The notes: generated by a model not told the origin, from the sequence alone. DNA of 64,000 bases from Candidatus Methanomethylophilaceae archaeon (GCA_944320495.1 CALUHR010000005.1:192001-256000), one strand, 5' to 3'. Shown: positions 34,076 through 48,376, numbered from the stretch's first letter. Numbers and translations are program-made.

Positions 34076-34436
34076 GCATACCCCGGGCCGTCCGTCCCGG
34101 ACGGCCCGAAACCCCTTCCCCCATCATCCCCAGCCCCCGCGCGTGTGTCCATTATTTCGGGGGCCGGGGTCCTCCGGACCCCTCCTTGTGATTGTCATTC
34201 CTTAGAACGTTTGTTAAATCGCCGACCCCCTCAACCCCTTTCATAAACGCTTCCCATCCCATTCGCCCATCGACCGTCCCCCGCCTTTATCCGCTCCGCC
34301 CGAGGGGACCCCGTCCATATACATGGACGCGGACGGGGTCCGCCGCTCCGATCCACTCCAAGATGGCGGCGGAGGCCCGTTTTGGAGTGATACACATGAA
34401 TGAGAAAGCAAGACGCATCCCGTGCGGGGGATGGGC

Positions 34437-37400
34437 ATGAGGCACGAGAGGCATCTCGTCATCGCGCTCCTCGCCGTGGCCCTCGTGGCGGTGTCGTGCT
34501 GTCTGGCGCTGACGTACGCGTCGGAGGATTCCAACGCCGAGATGGTGGCGGATCCGACGTACACGCTGACGCTACACGACGACAGCGGGACGAACAAGGA
34601 CATCCCGTACACCGTGTCCAGTGCCGTGAAGGTCCGTCTCCCGATCTACGAGTTCGAGAGGGACGGGTACTACCTTGAGTACTGGACGGACGGAACCAAT
34701 AACTATCGTCCCGGGAGCGAGATTCCCCAGTTGACGAAGGATACGACCTACACCACCGTTTGGAAGCAGGGACATGGGAACCAGCTTCCGGATGTTGTCG
34801 GTTCACCTGGCGAGGAATTGCGCATCGAGACGTTGAAGATGGTGAGCACCAGCTCTGTCGATTCGTTCTCCTGCACCGCATACCCCGAGGAATGGCTGAC
34901 GAACATGGGATACGCTTCTGGGGTCTTTGAAGGAAGCACCACGGAAGCGGGAATTTACTATCTCTGTTTCGACATCTCAATCTACCACATCAACCCGACC
35001 TACTACTGGTTCAGGATAATCATCGAACCCGAAGAATACACCCTCGACGATAAGTTCACTGTCGAATTCGACACCAACGGCGGAACCGTCGACAACGCCC
35101 AGGAGCTGAACAGCAAATCGGCACCAGTGGGAACGATCATCACCCTTCCTTCCCCCGATTCCTGTCACAATAACAACAACACGCTTCTCGGATGGACGGT
35201 CATGGTCAACGGCGTGCCGATGACCGCGATGGGGGTGTGCGGACAGTACACCATCGACCCCGATGCTGCGGACGTGTCCGAAGGCGAGCCGATAACCATC
35301 GAGGCAAGTTGGTATGCAGAGCAGTACGGACTGATCTTCAACGCCTTCGGATCGCCCGGTGTCACCGGTGCCGTGGCGAGGGAGGGTGACAACTACAAGA
35401 TGGTGGCCACCACCGAAACCCAGATTGGATACACCTTCGGCGGATGGACCGAATGGGACTCCACGGACACCGTCATCCCCATCGATTCCCTCTACACCGT
35501 CGAGAAGGGGATGCAGTTCTTCGGCTACTGGATCGAGAACGGGGCATCGACGTACCACGTCACCCTCGATGCCAACGGCGGGAGCGGTACCCTGAACGTC
35601 GACGTCAGGCAGGGCGACAAGGTCCAGCTGCCGAAGGCCATGCCTGACCGCGCCGGATACACCTTCGTCGGTTGGGCTGACGAGAGCGGGAAGCTGATCG
35701 AGACCGAGACTTTCACACCCTCGAAGGCGACAACGACTCTCAAGGCCCAGTGGACCCAGAACGTCAACCCCGTAGATAGCATCACATTCTCTGGATCGTC
35801 CGCAGTGAGCAAAGGCTCCAGGATCAGCATCCAAGCCACCGCATACCTCCAGTTCGACGACGACAGCCTCCCTGGCGACCGTCGCGTCTACTTCAAGGTC
35901 GCCGAAGGAGACGAGGACATCATCGAAATCACCTCCCAAAGCACCAACTCCACCGGAGGCACCTGCAGGGTCCTCGGACTCAGCATCGGCAAGGCCACGC
36001 TGATTGCCTACTCCGCCGACGGCAACTGCACCGTGGAGAAGACCATCACCGTAACCGCCAAGACGTACGTCCACACCCTGACCTACGACGCCAACGGCGG
36101 AGTGAATGCCCCGTACCAGGCACCCGTCGATACCGGAACGGCATCGTCCTACACGTTCACCATCTCCGAGCAGGAGCCCTCCTATGAGGGATACGATTTC
36201 CTCGGATGGGCGACCACCAAGGATGGGGAACCCGAGTACGGATGGGGCGAGAACCAGAAGCGCACCATAACCGTCTCCGGCTCTCAGACGCTCTATGCCA
36301 GATGGCAGGAGAAGGAGACTCTGACCCATCAGATCGTCTACGACGCCAACGGCGGCATCTGGTCCGACGGCGAGACGCAGGATGTCATCGGCACGATAAC
36401 CACCGACGAGTCCTACGAGTTCGCCATCAGGCAGGATCTGCCGACGAGATTGGGGTATCAGTTCGTCGGATGGTCGGAGGACAAGAACGCGGACCCCGAT
36501 TCCGAGGATCTCCTTCAGGCGAAGGATCCACTGGTTGTTTCTGGAACCAAGACACTATATGCGATTTGGGATGACAACCGCACAACATTCACACTGAAAT
36601 ACGACGCCAACCACGGAGATGCCGATTCCGTACCAGAACCTTGGACGGACAAGACCCCCAGCATCTCCTACACGACGGATGTTGACTTCTCCGTCATACC
36701 CACTAGGGATGGATACACGTTCTTGGGATGGTCTAAGTCGCCCAGTGCAAGTTATCCGGAGTTCACCGCCGACGGTGAAACCACGATCACTCTGCGCGCC
36801 GCCGCATCTGGTGCTCCGACTGAGGTGACACTTTATGCTGTGTGGAAGTTGGCATCCAACATCCATGTGCTGACGTTCGATGCCAACGGCGGTACGGGTG
36901 CCCCCGAGGCACTGAAGTCCGAGCCGACCCAGGAACCGTCATACCCCTTCGAGATTCCGAAGGAGGTGCCCACGAGGGAGTTCTATACCTTCCTGGGATG
37001 GTCGAGCGATCCCAACGCTAAGAGTCCGACGTACACCGTCTCCCCTCCCGACAATGAGGTGATCGTCAAGAAGGAGCTCATACTCTATGCGATATGGGCC
37101 CCGAGCGAGGACTTCTACTCTTACCAGCTCATCTACGATCTCAACGGTGGTGTGGGGGACGGATTCGATTCCATCGTCGAACCGAGCCAGGATAAGTCCT
37201 ACACCTTTGATGTGACCACACTCGAACCTGCCAGGGATGATGGAGCTAGATTCCTTGGCTGGACACTGGATGAGGATGACTCCTCTCCCGACTACGGACA
37301 CAAGACCGGCCAGAAGGACACGGTCGAGGCCACCTCGGAACAGCCAATCATCGTCCTTCACGCTGTATGGAAGGAGATTCCGGCAGGTTCCATCATCGTC

Positions 37401-37754
37401 CAGTTCAACACCAATGGCGGTTGCACTGTGGAATCCCAGGTGATTGCCAGCGGTGACAAGGCTACCGAGCCCAAGGATCCCGTTCGTGACGGGTACGAAT
37501 TCCTCGGTTGGTTCACGGCCTCTGGCGAAAGATGGGACTTCAACACCTCCATAACCGCGGATCTGACGCTCTTCGCCCTTTGGGAGAAGACAGATTCACC
37601 CACCGGCCCCGATGACGATTCCACCGTATGGATTGTCATGATTGTTGTAGGCGCACTCTTGGTCGCGATCGGATTCGCCACCAGAGTAGAATTCGCTGCC
37701 TACGTTGGAATCATCTGTACCGTCATGGGAGTCGCTTTCTTCCTGATATTCTGA
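34437..37754 (+). CDS. Cell-surface protein with multiple Listeria-Bacteroides (Flg_new/InlB-B-like) repeats
   Basis: Repeated Y/F-DANGG...P...GY.F.GW....G...LYA.W units; signal peptide; C-terminal TM hairpin. Confidence 0.88.
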   Translation: MRHERHLVIALLAVALVAVSCCLALTYASEDSNAEMVADPTYTLTLHDDSGTNKDIPYTVSSAVKVRLPIYEFERDGYYLEYWTDGTNNYRPGSEIPQLTKDTTYTTVWKQGHGNQLPDVVGSPGEELRIETLKMVSTSSVDSFSCTAYPEEWLTNMGYASGVFEGSTTEAGIYYLCFDISIYHINPTYYWFRIIIEPEEYTLDDKFTVEFDTNGGTVDNAQELNSKSAPVGTIITLPSPDSCHNNNNTLLGWTVMVNGVPMTAMGVCGQYTIDPDAADVSEGEPITIEASWYAEQYGLIFNAFGSPGVTGAVAREGDNYKMVATTETQIGYTFGGWTEWDSTDTVIPIDSLYTVEKGMQFFGYWIENGASTYHVTLDANGGSGTLNVDVRQGDKVQLPKAMPDRAGYTFVGWADESGKLIETETFTPSKATTTLKAQWTQNVNPVDSITFSGSSAVSKGSRISIQATAYLQFDDDSLPGDRRVYFKVAEGDEDIIEITSQSTNSTGGTCRVLGLSIGKATLIAYSADGNCTVEKTITVTAKTYVHTLTYDANGGVNAPYQAPVDTGTASSYTFTISEQEPSYEGYDFLGWATTKDGEPEYGWGENQKRTITVSGSQTLYARWQEKETLTHQIVYDANGGIWSDGETQDVIGTITTDESYEFAIRQDLPTRLGYQFVGWSEDKNADPDSEDLLQAKDPLVVSGTKTLYAIWDDNRTTFTLKYDANHGDADSVPEPWTDKTPSISYTTDVDFSVIPTRDGYTFLGWSKSPSASYPEFTADGETTITLRAAASGAPTEVTLYAVWKLASNIHVLTFDANGGTGAPEALKSEPTQEPSYPFEIPKEVPTREFYTFLGWSSDPNAKSPTYTVSPPDNEVIVKKELILYAIWAPSEDFYSYQLIYDLNGGVGDGFDSIVEPSQDKSYTFDVTTLEPARDDGARFLGWTLDEDDSSPDYGHKTGQKDTVEATSEQPIIVLHAVWKEIPAGSIIVQFNTNGGCTVESQVIASGDKATEPKDPVRDGYEFLGWFTASGERWDFNTSITADLTLFALWEKTDSPTGPDDDSTVWIVMIVVGALLVAIGFATRVEFAAYVGIICTVMGVAFFLIF

Positions 37755-37764
37755 GTTGATTGAA

Positions 37765-39915
37765 ATGAAAGATAGAACGATGCTGATGATGTCCGTGATT
37801 GTGCTGATCGCATCCGTGTTCTGCACAGCGGCCATCACATATGATCAGGACGTCGAGGGGGCAACCTCTCCGTCCAGTCTCTGCAGCGTGTCGTTCGTCC
37901 CCAATCTAAGCGGTGACGGACATGACACCAGCCAGGCCCACACATACGATGTCCTCAAAGGCAACACCATCGAACTCCCAACCAAGGAATTCACGAACAC
38001 CAACCACGTACTCATCGGATGGACGGTCGGATCCGTCGACGGGACGGAATTGTTGACAGGTGCCGAATATACGGTGAATGAGAACACAACGTTCTACGCC
38101 AAATGGGTGGAGACGAACGTCGCCGCAACCCATCAGTCCGACTGGGATTCGAACCTGACCGTCGGTGGAGAGTTCGATAAGACCTACTCGTTCGATTCGT
38201 TCTGGAGTGTATCCGATCCCCGCATCATCAGTGGACCCGACTGGCTTCATGCGGAGGTGAATGGAGACGGCGATGCCCATTTCTACGGTAACGCGGAATC
38301 CTCCGGAAGCTGGTATGTCGAGGTACTCTTCACCCACAATATCGACACTTACAGGCTCTGGTGGCAGATCACTGTGCCTTCTGCCATGGACAAGGAGATA
38401 ACTTACACCTATGATGGCAACGAAGGATCGAACATCACCCTTTCCTCGTTCACCCTTCGTGCGGGAACCACACACATTCTGGCCGACGCTTCCGTCACAT
38501 CCAGGGCTGGATATGACCTCTGGGGATGGACCATCCGTGACGGTGCGGGCAATCAGCCGACCTACGCTCTCGGATCTGCATACACGGCCAGCGAGGAGCT
38601 GTATGACAGATATGGTGCGAACCAGACAATCTCCGCACACTGGGAACCGATGGCCAACATCCTCATCCTGAACGCATCTGGTGCGGATGGAATATCCGCT
38701 CAGGTTGTCAGGGAGGGGGACATCCTGACATTCCCTGCCACCACGGACTACAAGATGCCAGGATACGTCCTGAAGGGATGGTTCTTGGACAGCGATGAGA
38801 ACGCTATTTACGCCCCCGGATACCAGTACAAGGTTGGGTCCGCCGCAAAGGGGGCCATCTATGCTTGTGCATACTGGGTAGCCGAAGGGACAGAGACCTA
38901 CAAGGTGACCTACAACGTCAATGGAGGGGAGGACTACTCCCTGAGCCAGGAGGTTGAGGAAGGAAAGTCCGTGGTCCTGCCCACAGAGGGTTTCACCAAG
39001 AAGGGTTTCACACTCGTCGGATGGTCCGAGAAGACTGAGGATGACGAGCCTTCCCTGGCCGGACAGGCATACACCCCCACGAAGAGCGTAACCTTGTATG
39101 CAATCTATCGCGAAAGTTCCTCTGGATCGGGAGAGACATATTCCGTGACCTTCAATGTCAACGGCGGAACCGGTGTGTTCCAAGCCCAGGAGGTGGAGGA
39201 GGGCGGATACGCCACAAAACCCTCGACCGATCCCGTCAAAGAACGGCACATCTTTATGGGCTGGTTCCAGACAGGTTCCGCTACCGCATGGGATTTCGCC
39301 AGCAAACCAGTCACACAGAATATCAGTCTGGTTGCCAACTGGAGGGAGCATTTCACGGTCACGACTGATGGTAATATCGTCACTCTGAACGTGGATTCGT
39401 ACTTCAGCAGACTCGGCATATCGACTGTCGACTGGGGAGACGGCAAGATCCAGGAGAATGTCAGCACCAAGGTCACCCACACATACGATGATGATGCCTC
39501 TGGAACCATCACGGTGACGACGAAGCAGACTGGGGCATCCACGACGTACGTCTCGTCCTACAAGTTCTCCATCGGAGAGGGCGGAGGCACCCCACTGAAG
39601 GCGGTGGGCAAGATTACCGACAACGGGGACGGCACATGGACCCTCAGTGCTGAAGGTTCCACAGGCATGGACTCCTACGCATGGTACGTCAACGATGAGT
39701 TCGTCGGCGATAAGGCAACCGTAACTCTCGAGAATCTCGAGGATGGCAGGTATGACGTGAAGCTGGTGGTTGATGCCGATGGTGCAGAAAAGCCGTCCGA
39801 ATGGAAAGGCTCCTTCACAGTTGGAGATACTTTCGACTACACACTGATTATCTATGCCGTGGTCATCGTCGTGGTTATCATCGCACTGATAATGGTAGCG
39901 AGGAACTTCCTATGA
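37765..39915 (+). CDS. Cell-surface protein with Listeria-Bacteroides repeats and a PKD-like domain
   Basis: NGG...GF.L.GW..LYA.W repeats, VDWGDG motif, C-terminal TM. Confidence 0.85.
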   Translation: MKDRTMLMMSVIVLIASVFCTAAITYDQDVEGATSPSSLCSVSFVPNLSGDGHDTSQAHTYDVLKGNTIELPTKEFTNTNHVLIGWTVGSVDGTELLTGAEYTVNENTTFYAKWVETNVAATHQSDWDSNLTVGGEFDKTYSFDSFWSVSDPRIISGPDWLHAEVNGDGDAHFYGNAESSGSWYVEVLFTHNIDTYRLWWQITVPSAMDKEITYTYDGNEGSNITLSSFTLRAGTTHILADASVTSRAGYDLWGWTIRDGAGNQPTYALGSAYTASEELYDRYGANQTISAHWEPMANILILNASGADGISAQVVREGDILTFPATTDYKMPGYVLKGWFLDSDENAIYAPGYQYKVGSAAKGAIYACAYWVAEGTETYKVTYNVNGGEDYSLSQEVEEGKSVVLPTEGFTKKGFTLVGWSEKTEDDEPSLAGQAYTPTKSVTLYAIYRESSSGSGETYSVTFNVNGGTGVFQAQEVEEGGYATKPSTDPVKERHIFMGWFQTGSATAWDFASKPVTQNISLVANWREHFTVTTDGNIVTLNVDSYFSRLGISTVDWGDGKIQENVSTKVTHTYDDDASGTITVTTKQTGASTTYVSSYKFSIGEGGGTPLKAVGKITDNGDGTWTLSAEGSTGMDSYAWYVNDEFVGDKATVTLENLEDGRYDVKLVVDADGAEKPSEWKGSFTVGDTFDYTLIIYAVVIVVVIIALIMVARNFL

Positions 39916-41816
39916 CTGAGACGCTGAATACCAGCCGTAAGCGCATCTTCGCCATCGGTGCCGTATTCATGCTACTCTTCGCCGGATTGGCAGTTACGGC
40001 GACGGATGACGAGAACGAGTCTCAGGCCCTGATCATCGACAATTCCACGGCTTTCGCCATCGGTGTTTCGGTGGGTCTCGGCATCGCCGCCGTAACCATC
40101 ACAGTCCTGGATCTCGTACTCGACAGGACGGAGGAGGAATTCGAGGAGGCCAACCGTTCGGCTGAAGCGGGCATAGTCGCCAGTGCGCTCATTTCCACAG
40201 TAGCCCAGTATGAGAACTCCCTGTCTCAGGTTGCCAACATCTGGCCCTTGACCAATGACCACTGGGTGAGACAGGCCGAGATGACCGCCGCATCGATGTG
40301 GTCCTTTGGCGAGGAGCTGGATTTCGACGAGCTCCTGGTTCAATCGGACATCTTCAACAACATCGGCCAGAATCTCGATAACCTGTCGTCCCAGTTCAAC
40401 GACACTTGGGACACGATAGGGGAACGTGTGAAGGAGTGGAATACCACCGAATTCGCCGAAGTATATGGGACTGGAATGATGTCGATCAGCGTCGACTACG
40501 GCAGCAACCATCTGACCGCCGATTCCGGAGAGGACTTTGACATAGGCGTTGGAATCGTCCTTCGCGACGTCGTCAAGGGACAAGACCAGGCATGGCTTTC
40601 CGGCGGAGCTCTGTATGCCTCCGAGGAATGCACAATCACGGACGGAGAACACGTCGTCAATCTCGGAAAGGGCTGGAACACACTGCCCGAACCCGACGAA
40701 TTCTACGGAGGAATCTGGACATTCCCCGCTGGCGTGACATTCTGCGGGAATATAGTACCGATCGTCGGATCTGGCGGTGCCGAAGGCGTTGCCGGACTAG
40801 TGGCCGACATAAACGGCGAGACGAAGGTCTTCACGGCCGCCAACTACGAGGAAACGTCCGAGCTCTACAAACCGACTTGCGATGCGTACGATGGTGACAG
40901 CTACTATGACGAAGTCTCGGTCTCCATCACACCGAAGGAATCCGAGAATGCCCAGTCCCTGGACATCACGGACGTCCTTGCCAGATACCAGATGATTCTC
41001 CAGACTCTGGAGGCCACACTGCCCGTCTGCGTGGATGCGGCCTCCACGGTATGGGAGATCTACAACATGTCTGGCGAGGCCAACCTATACCTGACAACCC
41101 TCATGGTCCCAGAGGAATACGAGAACGTCCGTCTCACCGATGACCAGCGTACCATGATTACCATCTTCGCGATGGATCAGCTCACGCAGTACTGGGAAGA
41201 CAACGGCGACGAGGTTAGAAAGACATCCTACACCATGACCAAGGAATCGATGTCGCTGTATTGCCGTGGCAACGTCGTCGTCACGGACTACAGTGTTGAC
41301 GGCACCTCTAAGGCCGTGGTGTACGAGGACGTTATCTTCACGCCCCTGTTCAGCGAGGATTACAACCTCAAAACGGGAATGAACGAGATTACGGATGCGG
41401 GATCCGTCATGATCTGGGGCAAGGGACAGTCCCTCTCCACTTTTGACGTGACCGATCCGGAGATGGCGGTCCTGATTCCCGTGGCCAAGGGAGTGAAACT
41501 CGAGGTTGCGGCCATCATGTACAGCGGAGAGTACGTCGACTCTCTCCAGCTCAATGCGGTCAACGTGGATAACGTGGAATCTGACACACCCATAATCCCC
41601 GACCCTCCGAAGCCTCAGCCCAACAACGATCTGGATGAACTCATCCGTCTCATTATGGTCGTCGCTGGGCTGCTTATTCTGCTGTGGGGGTTGAGGACCA
41701 TGGACGTACGGTTTATCATCATCGGAATCGCAGTGATGGTTGCCGGAATCATCTTCGCTGAGAAGATCGAGAATCTGCTCCAGAGCGCCTTCGGCTGGGA
41801 ATTCCGCTGGCCCTGA
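39912..41816 (+). CDS. Membrane-anchored ectodomain protein, possibly pleolipovirus spike/fusogen-like
   Basis: ATGA overlap with the upstream gene; signal peptide, second hydrophobic segment, helical region with WVRQAEMTAA, beta-rich region, Pro linker, C-terminal TM hairpin. The family call is inference. Confidence 0.75.
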   Translation: MTETLNTSRKRIFAIGAVFMLLFAGLAVTATDDENESQALIIDNSTAFAIGVSVGLGIAAVTITVLDLVLDRTEEEFEEANRSAEAGIVASALISTVAQYENSLSQVANIWPLTNDHWVRQAEMTAASMWSFGEELDFDELLVQSDIFNNIGQNLDNLSSQFNDTWDTIGERVKEWNTTEFAEVYGTGMMSISVDYGSNHLTADSGEDFDIGVGIVLRDVVKGQDQAWLSGGALYASEECTITDGEHVVNLGKGWNTLPEPDEFYGGIWTFPAGVTFCGNIVPIVGSGGAEGVAGLVADINGETKVFTAANYEETSELYKPTCDAYDGDSYYDEVSVSITPKESENAQSLDITDVLARYQMILQTLEATLPVCVDAASTVWEIYNMSGEANLYLTTLMVPEEYENVRLTDDQRTMITIFAMDQLTQYWEDNGDEVRKTSYTMTKESMSLYCRGNVVVTDYSVDGTSKAVVYEDVIFTPLFSEDYNLKTGMNEITDAGSVMIWGKGQSLSTFDVTDPEMAVLIPVAKGVKLEVAAIMYSGEYVDSLQLNAVNVDNVESDTPIIPDPPKPQPNNDLDELIRLIMVVAGLLILLWGLRTMDVRFIIIGIAVMVAGIIFAEKIENLLQSAFGWEFRWP

Positions 41817-41928
41817 GTCCTGAACCATTAACCAAATGGGCCTAACGGCCCAAAATCCCCTTCCAATCCCATTATTCGAACAGAAGAGTCAGGAAGCGCA
41901 TTTATCCTGACCACCTCATCACGACACC

Positions 41929-42564
41929 ATGAACCACAAGACGGCTGCCGTGGTCGTCATCGCGGTCGTCATCCTGGCCGGTGCCGGACTCATTCTTTAC
42001 AACGAGGATCGCAAGGCCCACGCGGATGACCCCGCATACATCCTCCACGGCAATGGCGGAGTCCTGACGGACGGATCGGAGACCTACGAGAACAGATGGA
42101 CCCTTGAAGGCTGTCGTTTCTCCAATGCGGACCGCACATTCGTCGGATGGAACTCGGAACCCGACGGCAAGGGCGAGTGGCATCAGATCGGCGAACGCAG
42201 CGATGACCGGAACATCGACCTGTACGCACAGTGGGGATTCGGATTGAAGATTACCGTCATCGACGGGACTTCCGATGGGATACTGGACGGATACAACGGA
42301 TTCCTCACCTACGGGAACAAGGAATGGCGTCTCCTGGCGGACATGGTGATTCCGTCCGCCGGGGCCGAACTGACCCTGGACACGCACATGGAGTGGGAAT
42401 TCGACGGACTCCGCTTCACCGATTCGCAGAACCTCTACACGATTGAGATCGACATCGAGGGCGGCGTAGTGACATCCAGCTCCGCCAGCGGTGGCGACGT
42501 CGTCCTCTACCTGGACCCCATCACCGATACCGAACTCACCGTGACCGTCACCGACATCGACTGA
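41929..42564 (+). CDS. Small surface protein with one Listeria-Bacteroides repeat
   Basis: YILHGNGG...RTFVGWNSEPDGKG...DLYAQW after an N-terminal TM. Confidence 0.8.
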   Translation: MNHKTAAVVVIAVVILAGAGLILYNEDRKAHADDPAYILHGNGGVLTDGSETYENRWTLEGCRFSNADRTFVGWNSEPDGKGEWHQIGERSDDRNIDLYAQWGFGLKITVIDGTSDGILDGYNGFLTYGNKEWRLLADMVIPSAGAELTLDTHMEWEFDGLRFTDSQNLYTIEIDIEGGVVTSSSASGGDVVLYLDPITDTELTVTVTDID

Positions 42565-42630: not shown

Positions 42631-43200
42631 ATGTCCAGCATCCGCGTCGTCCGTCAGAGGATCCAACCCTGGAAGGGGCGCGACTGCACCGCCGAGAGGT
42701 ACTACGTGAACGACTGGGTCGACCGCATCCAGCACAACCTCCTCCTCTACGCCTCCCGGAATCCCGGCACCCCGTCGCTGTCCCTTCTCCGCAAGGTCGG
42801 GAAGGTGTGGTACGACTCCAACGCGGGATGCCACGTCGACGGGATCTTCGACAGCTATCTGGCCCGGTTCATCGCCCGCACCATGGAGGACACCCAGTTC
42901 CTCGAATCCGAGTACAACGTACCCTACGGAACTACCGAGATCGTGGACTGGACGTCGCTCGTCGACGCCGTTCCCATGGAGGAGCGCAACGGGATATGCG
43001 TCTTCAGCCACGGCGGACGCGAGTACCTCGTGGAGCGCGGATACTACGAACACGCCCGCCGCACGATCCAAGCCTACCGTCTGTTCGACGGCACGGTGGA
43101 CTTCGAGACGGAGTCCGCCGACCTGATGGAGCTCGTCCGCAGGCTGATCGGAGACGACGGGCATGAGGGGATCGTGCCGCTGTCGTCGATGTTCTCGCGA
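42631..43200 (+). CDS. Hypothetical protein (189 aa), proposed CGA stop
   Basis: Coding-like codon bias to about 43200; first in-frame CGA at 43198-43200; TATTATA box ~25 nt upstream. Confidence 0.7.
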
Positions 43201-43203
43201 CCT

Positions 43204-45501
43204 TCGCACCTTCCCGCCGTAGCTGGCGATCGTCGACTCCCTGCACTCCTTCTCAGCCAGCCTCATGCGGTTGCCCATGTAGCGCCAGTCAGGCACCCCG
43301 TCCCCGGCTGGCAGCGTCAGCCTCAGGTTCAGGAGATCGGAGGCGTTGTCGATGAGGATGTCCTCCCCTCCGATCAGTTTCTTCGCCATGGCGCAGACGA
43401 TGTACTGCTGGACGCTCCTCGGCATCTTCCTCCTGGTGCGGAGGACGATCACCTGCCCGGACGTCTTGAACGGCACCGGCTGGTATGTGACGGCCACGAC
43501 GCGGCGGCCCCTCAGGGAGACGGCGATGCACTCGCCCTTGTGGACATCCCCGTCCGCCGGTGCGAACTTGCCCCACCCGTTGTTGCCCTTCTTCGCGATG
43601 ACCGTCGGGACGGTTCCGGAGACCTTCGGCGGCTTGGCGGAATCCTCCTCGAGGAACCCGTTCGCCTTGTAGTTCGCCGTCTTTATCGTCCTGACCTTGA
43701 ACGACTTCGCCGGTTCGGCGGGGCCGTCGTTGACGACCTCCATTCCGTTGCGTCTCTGTTCGGCGACGAAGTCCAGCCAATCTCTCATGTAAGCCGTTAT
43801 GTCGTCGCCATTCACCCTCGCCCCTTTCTCCGATGGGTTCACCCACCATTCGTCGGGGGCGACATCGACTACCCTGAACAGATTGGATGGCCTATTGTCG
43901 CGAAGTATGTCGATGATGTCGAAAACATCATCAGTCCCCGACGGCGATGCAATCCTGGTAGCGGTCTTGTCGTGCGGTTTCCCCGCCGAGAGATAGACGA
44001 TGCAATGGCGGTCGTCCAGGCGGATCGTGCTCACGAGCCTGTTGTGATCGAGGATGCTGGAGCGGAGTACCCTGCAGCCCTTGGCGTCACCGGACACGGC
44101 CTTCATGGGCACTATTGCGAACACCGTCCCCTCGATGCGTACGGTGTTCAGCATACTGTTGAGCAGAGAAAGAACATCTGAGGGGGACAGATCGCGTTCC
44201 GAGATGTCCGTGACGATATGGTCGGGCCTCTTGTTCCCCGTCGGGAGTTTGTCATCGGGAAATCTGCGGGGGACCACATTGATCCTCCTGGCACCCGATA
44301 GGATGACGTTGAAGATCGCCGTGGTGTACCTCCACGGATCGGACTCCATCCCGTAGATTCCTTTGTTGACCATCTTGTCGGAGCCGCTCCTGCTCTCCGC
44401 CTTGGCACCCACCCTGTAGGAGACCGCCTTGATGAACGCCCCGTCACCGCAGAACGGATCCAGGATGACCTGCCCCGTCACCGGGTTCAGGGTGGACACC
44501 ATCGCCTGCCCGTAGAGTCCCAGGTCGGGTTTCTGACGCTTCTGATCCAGATTGTGTTCCTGGCACTCGGTGAACACGGAATACAGCTGCCCCATCTGCT
44601 CCATGTCCATCTTGTGGATGTACCTGCGCGTCTCTATCGCCAGTCTTCTTATGGGACTTTGGCCGTCTTCGCCCCTTTTGTTCAACCGACCCTCCTTGGT
44701 GAGGGTGTCCAGGATGTCATAGAACACATCCTCCGCTGACCCATCGGTTCCGGGGAAGACTATGCCGAGCTTCCGCAGTGTCGCCTCGGTGTGATCCTTG
44801 AGAATCTTACAGTCGGTGTTGTACGGATCGCCCTTGAGATCGAACTCGCTGTAGGTCTTGTCCAACTTGGCCAGCAGCATCAGGCCCATGAGGACATTCC
44901 GTTCCTCTCTGGACCGCGTCACCTTGTCGAACTTTGTGCGAAGGTCCCTGCAGATCTTGGCAAGTTCCTTGGGATTGTCACTCAGCCCCCTGTATTTCAA
45001 CCCCAGACCGACCGAGATGTAGTCTCTGGCATCGGATTCCGAGAACGCCGTGAAATCCCTGACGGTCCTCTGGGGATCATAGAGGCACGTGTACCCGTCA
45101 GTGTCCAGCTGGCAGATGTACGGCTGGATGTTGAGGACACCTTTCTTCGCGGTGCAGCCGACGGCGATCGCTTGCTTGAACCGCCCGTGTCTCATCACCT
45201 CGCCCGCATAGAAGACGGCCCCGTTGTCCGCATACTTGGCGATTGTCTCGAAATCCATACGGAGATGGTCCGTCTCGTCGACGGAGCGTTGGTAACGCGG
45301 ATCGGCCTTCACCTCCACGATTATCGGAATCCCGTCCGACATGACGACGATGTCTGGGATGCCCTGATGCCCCGACCCCCTCTTGGAGGCCTTCGATAAC
45401 GCCTGGGCGATGCGCTTGTCCTTCGTACCTTCGAACTCCGGCTTCAATCCCGCCTTCTTCATGAGTTCGCCGATCTTGTATGTGACATCGCGCTCGCTCA
45501 A
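43204..45501 (-). CDS. BcgI-like restriction-modification fusion (PD-ExK nuclease + N6-MTase-like + specificity domain), 765 aa, proposed CGA stop
   Basis: GIPDIVV...IIVEVKA nuclease motif; ILDPFCGDGAFI SAM-binding motif; C-terminal TRD-like region ending PDWRYM; first in-frame CGA at 43204-43206. Confidence 0.75.
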
Positions 45502-48225: not shown

Positions 48226-48303
48226 CTCTCTGAATCTCCTTTGCAGTTTGTATCCAAACTGCCATTCTGATTATTTAGATGTTGGCACCGAGAACGAAAT
48301 GAG

Positions 48304-48376
48304 CGCCCTGGCTGGGATTTGAACCCAAGTCGGAGCCTCGACAGGGCTCCATGATAGGCCGCTACACTACCAGGGC
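48304..48376 (-). tRNA. tRNA-Asp(GTC)
   Basis: GCCCTGG...CCAGGGC acceptor stem, GAGCC-CTGTCGA-GGCTC anticodon arm, GGTTCAAATCC T-arm, no encoded CCA, CTTATAT box upstream. Confidence 0.97.

Follow-up and report, generated by a model that had tools for sequence, protein, structure and literature searches.

The 64,000-nucleotide stretch of DNA analyzed here (the window; C5:192001-256000) comes from the genome of a Candidatus Methanomethylophilaceae archaeon (G000; 1.77 Mb, 61% guanine-plus-cytosine (GC) content, archaeal tRNA set) and contains two convergent genes, both of which very probably end at the codon CGA. The product of the plus-strand gene is designated P0001 and that of the minus-strand gene P0002; P0003-P0038 are the other proteins compared, and labels beginning with G denote sampled genomes. 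Under NCBI translation table 11, the plus-strand open reading frame (ORF) extends from 42631 to 44181 (516 aa) and the minus-strand ORF from 45501 to 42604 (965 aa), such that the former lies entirely within the latter. The resulting antisense overlap, measured from stop to stop, is 1578 bp, in agreement with a preliminary description of this DNA that gave about 1.6 kb and remarked on the absence of TAA, TAG, and TGA from the junction. Positions 43190-43215 hold ...ttc tcg CGA cct TCG cac..., exactly as in that description, and the first in-frame CGAs had also been placed correctly, at 43198-43200 in the plus frame (the next one is at 43234-43236) and at 43204-43206 in the minus frame (TCG on the plus strand), after 765 codons.

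With CGA as a stop, the two ORFs become genes of 189 and 765 codons with 3 bp between them. The plus-strand gene body occupies 42631-43197, has a coding-like composition and homologs in its own genus, and is followed by the stop CGA at 43198-43200 and then by C. The spacer, CCT at 43201-43203, separates the two stop codons and, being only 3 bp long, leaves no space for a terminator between them. The minus-strand gene body occupies 43207-45501 and is followed by its stop CGA at 43204-43206 and then by A. An in-frame scan of the minus strand found three further CGAs within 43183-43197 (at 43195-43197, 43186-43188, and 43183-43185), which could serve as back-up stops for this gene.

No match to P0001 was found in Pfam, NCBIfam, or PHROGs. 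The P0001 family is present in several species of the genus, some of which have two copies (adjacent in G128 and on different contigs in G106). Its members may be short (about 190 aa) or long (about 330-360 aa), the long ones having an extra C-terminal domain (own-genus loci L010, L011, and L012/L018), and one of the long copies is apparently CGA-ended. For P0002, the Pfam domain N6_Mtase was identified at residues 333-405, and motif I (...LDPFCGDG...), which binds S-adenosylmethionine, aligns with that of N6_Mtase-bearing relatives; the distant relatives P0007 and P0008 carry both N6_Mtase and Methylase_S. The catalytic motif IV (NPPY), which is NPPYS in P0007, P0008, and P0013, is missing from P0002 (residues ~420-435) and from its relatives P0005 and P0006, in which TDIS, SDLT, and TDIG, respectively, are found together with a 6-residue deletion. 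Because this loss is common to all three proteins, they probably form a conserved methylation-dead subfamily rather than products of decay. The N-terminus of P0002 (...IPDIVV...IIVEVKAD...) contains a PD...EVK motif that is nuclease-like by sequence only, and residues 620-757 align with many ~340-aa proteins that have two target recognition domains (TRDs), among which P0030 and P0038 score as Methylase_S (1e-30 to 1e-35). P0002 is thus a predicted fusion of a PD...EVK nuclease-like N-terminus, a methyltransferase-like domain without NPPY, and one HsdS-type TRD. Measured against fused enzymes of Type IIG (BcgI-like, with a nuclease, a gamma-class N6-adenine methyltransferase, and a TRD), the label of restriction-modification gene in the preliminary description is only partly apt: motif I and the TRD agree with it, and the missing NPPY sets the protein apart from a standard restriction-modification enzyme.

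Coding signal was assessed by a codon log-likelihood score (LLR) that was trained on G000, with CGA itself excluded from the averages. In the plus frame, the LLR stays at +0.5 to +0.9 between 42631 and about 43170 and is below zero for the remainder up to 44181. In the minus frame, positive values extend from 45501 down to about 43250, with approximately zero or negative values beyond that point. The sign thus changes at about 43200 in both frames. Among the 64 codons, only CGA, TAA, TAG, and TGA are missing from both gene bodies (954 codons), which contain 79 other arginine codons. In-frame CGAs number zero in the bodies (189 and 765 codons), compared with seven and six in the plus and minus read-through tails, respectively. 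The density of CGA is 21-30 per 1000 codons in the two tails, and the five remaining frames of the same DNA have 32-42 per 1000; at the tail rate, the probability of finding no CGA in 954 body codons is ~4e-11. Given that CGA accounts for 21-42 per 1000 codons in non-coding frames, a CGA near any gene end is likely by chance, and the 3-bp spacing alone provides only moderate evidence. The preliminary description had taken this spacing as independent geometric support; the geometry itself was borne out, and taken alone it is weaker than was implied. The weight of the case for CGA as a stop lies in the absence of the codon from the bodies, the ends of homologs, and the genome-wide comparison, not in the local geometry.

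For both proteins, the homology to relatives breaks off nine residues short of the CGA. The closest homolog of P0001, P0004 from a metagenome contig of 45% GC, shares 74% identity over residues 1-180 and is a short form that stops with TAA at 195 aa, six residues beyond the CGA end of the 189-aa product examined here. Among the own-genus relatives of P0001, conservation reaches only about residue 175-180; some of these relatives have an extra C-terminal domain of about 130 aa, which is unlike the post-CGA sequence of the window. For P0002, a word-index search matched only P0003, which is the 965-aa read-through of the same gene as stored in a public protein collection, and homologs were obtained from an exhaustive representative search. 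Two full-length relatives (P0005 and P0006) were identified, and the homology of both ends at residue 756 of 765, nine residues before the minus-strand CGA. In the closest one, P0006 (from a contig of 63% GC), the first CGA occurs five codons past the end of homology, and the sequence after it looks like junk. P0005 lacks CGA throughout its 874 codons and has a real extra C-terminal domain that is unrelated to the post-CGA tail of P0002. As such, no conserved homolog sequence past either CGA, the finding named in advance as the one that would count against CGA as a stop, was present among the P0001 and P0002 homologs aligned.

The same pattern extends to the entire genome. A simple gene caller that treats CGA as a stop identified 1722 genes in G000, of which 1210 end with TGA, 428 with CGA, 58 with TAA, and 26 with TAG. 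CGA-free coding-like ORFs span ~1.6 Mb of the 1.77 Mb. Around the CGA ends, the LLR is +0.60 upstream and -0.40 downstream, and the downstream density of CGA climbs to the out-of-frame level. There is no standard stop nearby past these ends; the median extension is 27 codons and the longest reach hundreds. Independent of the LLR, the G000 proteins were compared by alignment with sequence from four other genera of the family, taken in 200-kb blocks. In the orthologs of CGA-ended genes, a TGA or TAA lies within five codons of the corresponding position in 27/34, 25/27, 8/10, and 29/33 cases (89/104 in total); for TGA-ended control genes, the same test gave 120/126, 86/93, 50/51, and 103/112. Pairs of same-frame coding-like ORFs that are split by a CGA occur at only 16 sites in G000, one of which is the gene for the archaeal release factor aRF1. 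A tblastn search of outgroup ORFs against G000 was discarded because it was swamped by conserved shadow frames.

Convergent gene pairs provide a further comparison. The standard code gives 63 overlaps of more than 100 bp among the 256 such pairs in G000, and there are none when CGA is a stop; the 112 pairs in which both genes have a standard stop likewise include no overlap of that size. For the 32 pairs in which both genes are CGA-ended, the median spacer is 0 bp, where the standard code would give an overlap of 507 bp. These double-CGA pairs typically have spacers of -4 to +7 bp, and the 3-bp junction examined here is an ordinary member of this group. A spacer of exactly 0 bp was observed in 30 of the 256 pairs (for example, at C5:30888, C5:61755, and C13:75633), forming a palindrome YGA|TCR with a GATC core (CGATCG in 13, CGATCA in eight, TGATCG in seven, and TGATCA in two). 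Three more pairs share TCGA, and spacer lengths of 1-8 bp hold zero to six pairs each. CGA makes up ~68% of the stops at the 0-bp junctions and 26% of those genome-wide.

The sequence context of CGA stops in G000 differs from that of TGA stops. The base that follows is T after 54% of CGA stops (29% after TGA stops) and A after only 8%, the second base is G or C in 84%, and ~22% of CGA stops form CGATG, in which stop and start codons overlap. This context could be a requirement for termination at CGA. In addition, a further in-frame stop (any of the four) is found within five codons after 38.6% of CGA stops, compared to 23.3% of TGA stops. This excess of back-up stops fits a leakier CGA, although the composition of the downstream DNA may confound the comparison.

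Taken together, the drop in coding signal, the ends of homologs, the stops of orthologs, and the decrease of large convergent overlaps from 63 to 0 support the proposal that CGA is a stop. It is highly probable that CGA terminates the translation of both genes and that the read-through ORFs of 516 and 965 aa are artifacts. The predicted plus-strand product has 189 aa and ends with ...SSMFS, and the predicted minus-strand product has 765 aa and ends with ...SYGGKV. Locally, the junction gives a clean example of a sense-to-stop change that extends through the genome, for which we infer the mechanism set out below.

The distribution of CGA stops within the family is uneven. In the four other genera, CGA is very rare within conserved genes, still encodes arginine wherever it aligns to conserved positions, and is not used as a stop. 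In own-genus genomes, the count is 0-4 CGAs per 1-42 thousand aligned codons. Among orthologous gene ends, the CGA share is 17-22% in G083, G108, G131, and G100 (and three of four ends in G129), compared to 0-4% in G084, G079, G121, G112, and G114. Heavy use of CGA stops is confined to a subclade of the genus, and in this high group TGA and CGA interchange at orthologous stops in the manner of synonymous stop codons.

The tRNA-Arg(UCG) gene is present in G000 with an intact anticodon. Its 31:39 pair, which closes the anticodon stem, is mismatched (A-A or C-A) in 14/14 sampled own-genus copies and paired (C-G, U-A, or U-G) in 8/8 outgroup copies. A single transition (C31 to U) would suffice to restore a pair, and none of the lineages has restored it, which suggests that a weak tRNA is tolerated or favored. 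The mismatch is A-A wherever checked in the high group and C-A in the low-group genomes G084 and G121. In G079, G085, and G089, which are complete or nearly complete, two BLAST queries and one pattern turned up no tRNA(UCG); an intron-containing gene would escape such a search. The pattern and the second BLAST query recovered only tRNA-Thr, tRNA-Pro, tRNA-Glu, and tRNA-Arg(GCG) from these three genomes and G114.

The aRF1 gene itself contains CGA. Codon 78, for an arginine that is conserved from haloarchaea to humans, is CGA in 9/11 genomes (G000 and eight of the 10 own-genus genomes sampled); G079, G085, and G089 retain this CGA although no tRNA(UCG) was found there. Across the family, 38/40 sampled aRF1 genes from at least 16 genera have an in-frame CGA, usually exactly one, and its arginine position varies by genus (9, 11, 25, 27, 50, 78, 123, or 327). 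In comparison, the CGA frequency in other conserved genes of four outgroup genomes is only 0-1.1 per 1000 codons. The link between aRF1 and CGA may predate the stop reassignment. Fixed differences between own-genus and outgroup aRF1 sequences are limited to positions 164, 250, 270, and 310. Throughout the family, the x in the YxC part of the YxCxxxF motif is Arg. In yeast, eRF1 L123R, which has Arg at the x of YxC, is UGA-biased and favors termination at CGA, and the x variants that favor UGA (F, R, and Y) enhance CGA termination (PMC7379694; PMC4482090). The Arg at x in this family is only a lead, given that the Aeropyrum aRF1 also has Arg there. The aRF1 of Candidatus Methanoprimaticola sp. 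MG2 is 91% identical to that of G000, and the relatives of this protein belong to Methanomassiliicoccales/Candidatus Methanomethylophilaceae; G000 falls in the same genus as Candidatus Methanoprimaticola, which has been equated with GTDB UBA71 in one paper.

These observations may be combined into one mechanism. CGA differs from UGA in the first base alone, and aRF1, the single archaeal release factor, would outcompete the tRNA for CGA in the ribosomal A site. The competitor, tRNA-Arg(UCG), would be the only tRNA able to read CGA and would be weakened by the 31:39 mismatch. This tRNA has probably been retained because the aRF1 gene has CGA at the universally conserved Arg codon 78. A feedback would then operate, in which little aRF1 leads to more read-through at codon 78 and hence to more aRF1. 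Historically, CGA would have become nearly extinct across the family, followed in this genus by the loss of the tRNA 31:39 pair and the disappearance of CGA from genes, and finally in one subclade by a drift of TGA stops to CGA, which came to end a fifth to a quarter of genes. By a modest margin of belief, we favor this account, in which CGA is a context-sensitive and somewhat leaky fourth stop that was reached stepwise from a family-wide loss of the codon, with an old feedback between aRF1 and CGA, to which the one in-frame CGA kept by the release-factor gene in almost every genus would point.

Several points weigh against a CGA stop at this junction or against the proposed mechanism. The whole case was built from sequences. 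Neither gene has an ortholog outside of the genus, such that the strongest test, a standard stop at the corresponding position of a standard-code relative, is available only via P0004. The fourth bases at this junction are atypical (C after the plus-strand CGA and A after the minus-strand CGA), with A being the rarest in this context. The retention of tRNA-Arg(UCG) means that CGA is not simply without a decoder. The codon-reading motifs NIKS and YxCxxxF of aRF1 have no genus-specific change between own-genus and outgroup sequences, and the mechanism thus lacks a sequence signature on the side of the release factor. Finally, G112 (48% GC) is an exception to the correspondence between mismatch type and CGA usage, having the A-A mismatch yet only 1.9% CGA ends, and this correlation is suggestive only, since the lineages are few and related.

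Among the alternative explanations, the one that fares best, while still improbable, is that CGA is an unassigned codon at which ribosomes stall due to a poor tRNA and are cleared by aPelota/ABCE1-type rescue, with aRF1 not reading the codon at all. The apparent weakening of the cognate tRNA, the unchanged codon-reading motifs of aRF1, the enrichment of back-up stops after CGA, and the failure of two BLAST queries and one pattern to find tRNA(UCG) in G079, G085, and G089 are all compatible with such stalling. However, a quarter of the genes, including housekeeping genes, depend on CGA, and rescue at such a scale would be costly. Pelota-type rescue alone also does not hydrolyze peptidyl-tRNA. 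Moreover, the CGATG overlaps found at ~22% of CGA stops resemble normal coupling between termination and reinitiation, and factors of the eRF1 type are known to act on CGA (PMC7379694).

A second alternative, considerably less probable, is decay, in which case both genes would be relics within a variable island that have each lost their stop and meet CGAs incidentally. The region is indeed variable, with both genes not found in G120 (a 79% complete genome of the same species), and the loss of NPPY as well as the extra C-terminal domain of some P0001 relatives may be read as signs of decay. This explanation is difficult to reconcile with frames that are intact and coding-like over 189 and 765 codons, with the sharing of the NPPY loss by the intact homologs P0005 and P0006, with the existence of P0004 as a short form with a standard stop, and with the same apparent loss of stops in 428 genes, conserved ones included.

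It is hardly credible that the standard code holds, with real proteins of 965 and 516 aa encoded across ~1.6 kb of antisense overlap: both long ORFs are open under table 11 and the 965-aa form is represented in a public protein collection by P0003, but the tails are non-coding in composition, rich in CGA, and without homologs or family matches, and in G000 overlaps above 100 bp are absent from the convergent pairs in which both stops are standard. Equally remote is the explanation that these CGAs are really TGAs, altered by systematic sequencing or assembly miscalls or by C-to-U RNA editing; CGA and TGA are one transition apart and orthologous positions do carry TGA, but TGA itself is abundant in G000, several species show the pattern in independent assemblies, as do unrelated metagenome contigs, the tRNA gene shows matching changes, and we know of no mechanism for frame-specific RNA editing in archaea. 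A frame-blind form of C-to-U editing or miscalling was also considered and rejected, because NCG codons followed by A align to the genome-encoded rather than the edited amino acid (2148 sites).

Returning to the reading of CGA as a fourth stop, similar changes of codon meaning are found in other systems. Organelle codes include sense-to-stop changes (NCBI tables 2, 22, and 23), with AGA/AGG in vertebrate, TCA in Scenedesmus, and TTA in Thraustochytrium mitochondria. To our knowledge, a few mitochondria are the only accepted cases. In these codes, as in G000, a sense codon leaves the genes and appears at gene ends instead of a standard stop. However, organelle genomes are tiny and have few genes, whereas the change described here involves ~428 genes in a 1.77-Mb cellular genome that has kept the cognate tRNA gene and one sense CGA in the release-factor gene. 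The bacterial RF2 gene (prfB) is autoregulated via an in-frame UGA, with escape by a +1 frameshift. The aRF1 gene would be comparable in that it has an in-frame codon at which its own product would terminate, creating negative feedback. The escape would differ from that of prfB, as it would occur by ordinary decoding of CGA by tRNA-Arg(UCG).

In yeast, eRF1/eRF3 compete with a poorly decoding tRNA-Arg and misdecode CGA as a stop, and termination can be detected at a single terminal CGA (Wada and Ito, 2018; PMC7379694). The proposed mechanism is alike, with an eRF1-family factor that would terminate at CGA against a poorly decoding tRNA-Arg. In yeast this is a minor side reaction on reporter genes, whereas here it would be the normal end for a quarter of the genes. 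Reassignments of arginine codons in bacteria include CGG to Gln or Trp, CGA/CGG to Trp, and AGG to Met (Shulgina and Eddy, 2021; PMC8629427). As in those cases, a rare arginine codon would have changed its meaning after nearly vanishing from the genome. The bacterial changes are sense-to-sense and were found in low-GC bacteria, whereas the change described here is sense-to-stop in a 61% GC archaeon. For two hydrothermal-vent archaeal assemblies in which CGG encodes Trp, CGA was raised as a possible stop, and the question was left open because the method used was unable to infer stops (Melnykov, 2026; bioRxiv 10.64898/2026.04.02.715157). In those archaea as well, CGA is missing from recognizable protein domains and a stop role was suggested. 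They belong to another lineage and habitat, lack tRNA(UCG), and have a reassigned CGG; in G000, CGG encodes Arg and tRNA(UCG) is retained, and the comparison extended to the gene ends of orthologs. No publication that describes a CGA stop in this group or in any free-living organism was found in the literature, and the nearest published report is this 2026 preprint, which merely raises a CGA stop for two unrelated vent archaea.

The new elements here are the 31:39 mismatch of the tRNA, the restriction of heavy CGA-stop use to a subclade, and the CGA in the release-factor gene of 38/40 family genomes. If the proposed change is true, the set of stop codons can grow in a cellular genome, and this genus and its relatives provide a natural series of sense-to-stop intermediates that is relevant to both the codon-capture and the ambiguous-intermediate models. 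Public gene calls for these gut methanogens would be wrong at about one gene in four; under the standard code, convergent neighbors such as the pair examined here appear to overlap in antisense by an impossible 1.6 kb. The apparent weakening of the tRNA and the presence of CGA within the release-factor gene provide concrete experimental handles.

The surroundings of the two genes include a tRNA-Asp(GTC) gene at 48303-48376 (minus strand), which is located among small genes of unknown function and has another copy at C5:105505. No attachment-site or direct repeats of tRNA-Asp were found in contig C5 besides the other tRNA-Asp gene, and an integrated element is not supported. Upstream of P0001, four co-oriented plus-strand genes occupy 34422-42564. 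Three of these genes (34422-37751, 37765-39912, and 41929-42561) encode adhesin-like proteins with the Listeria-Bacteroides repeat (Flg_new), and the fourth (39912-41813) has no Pfam match.

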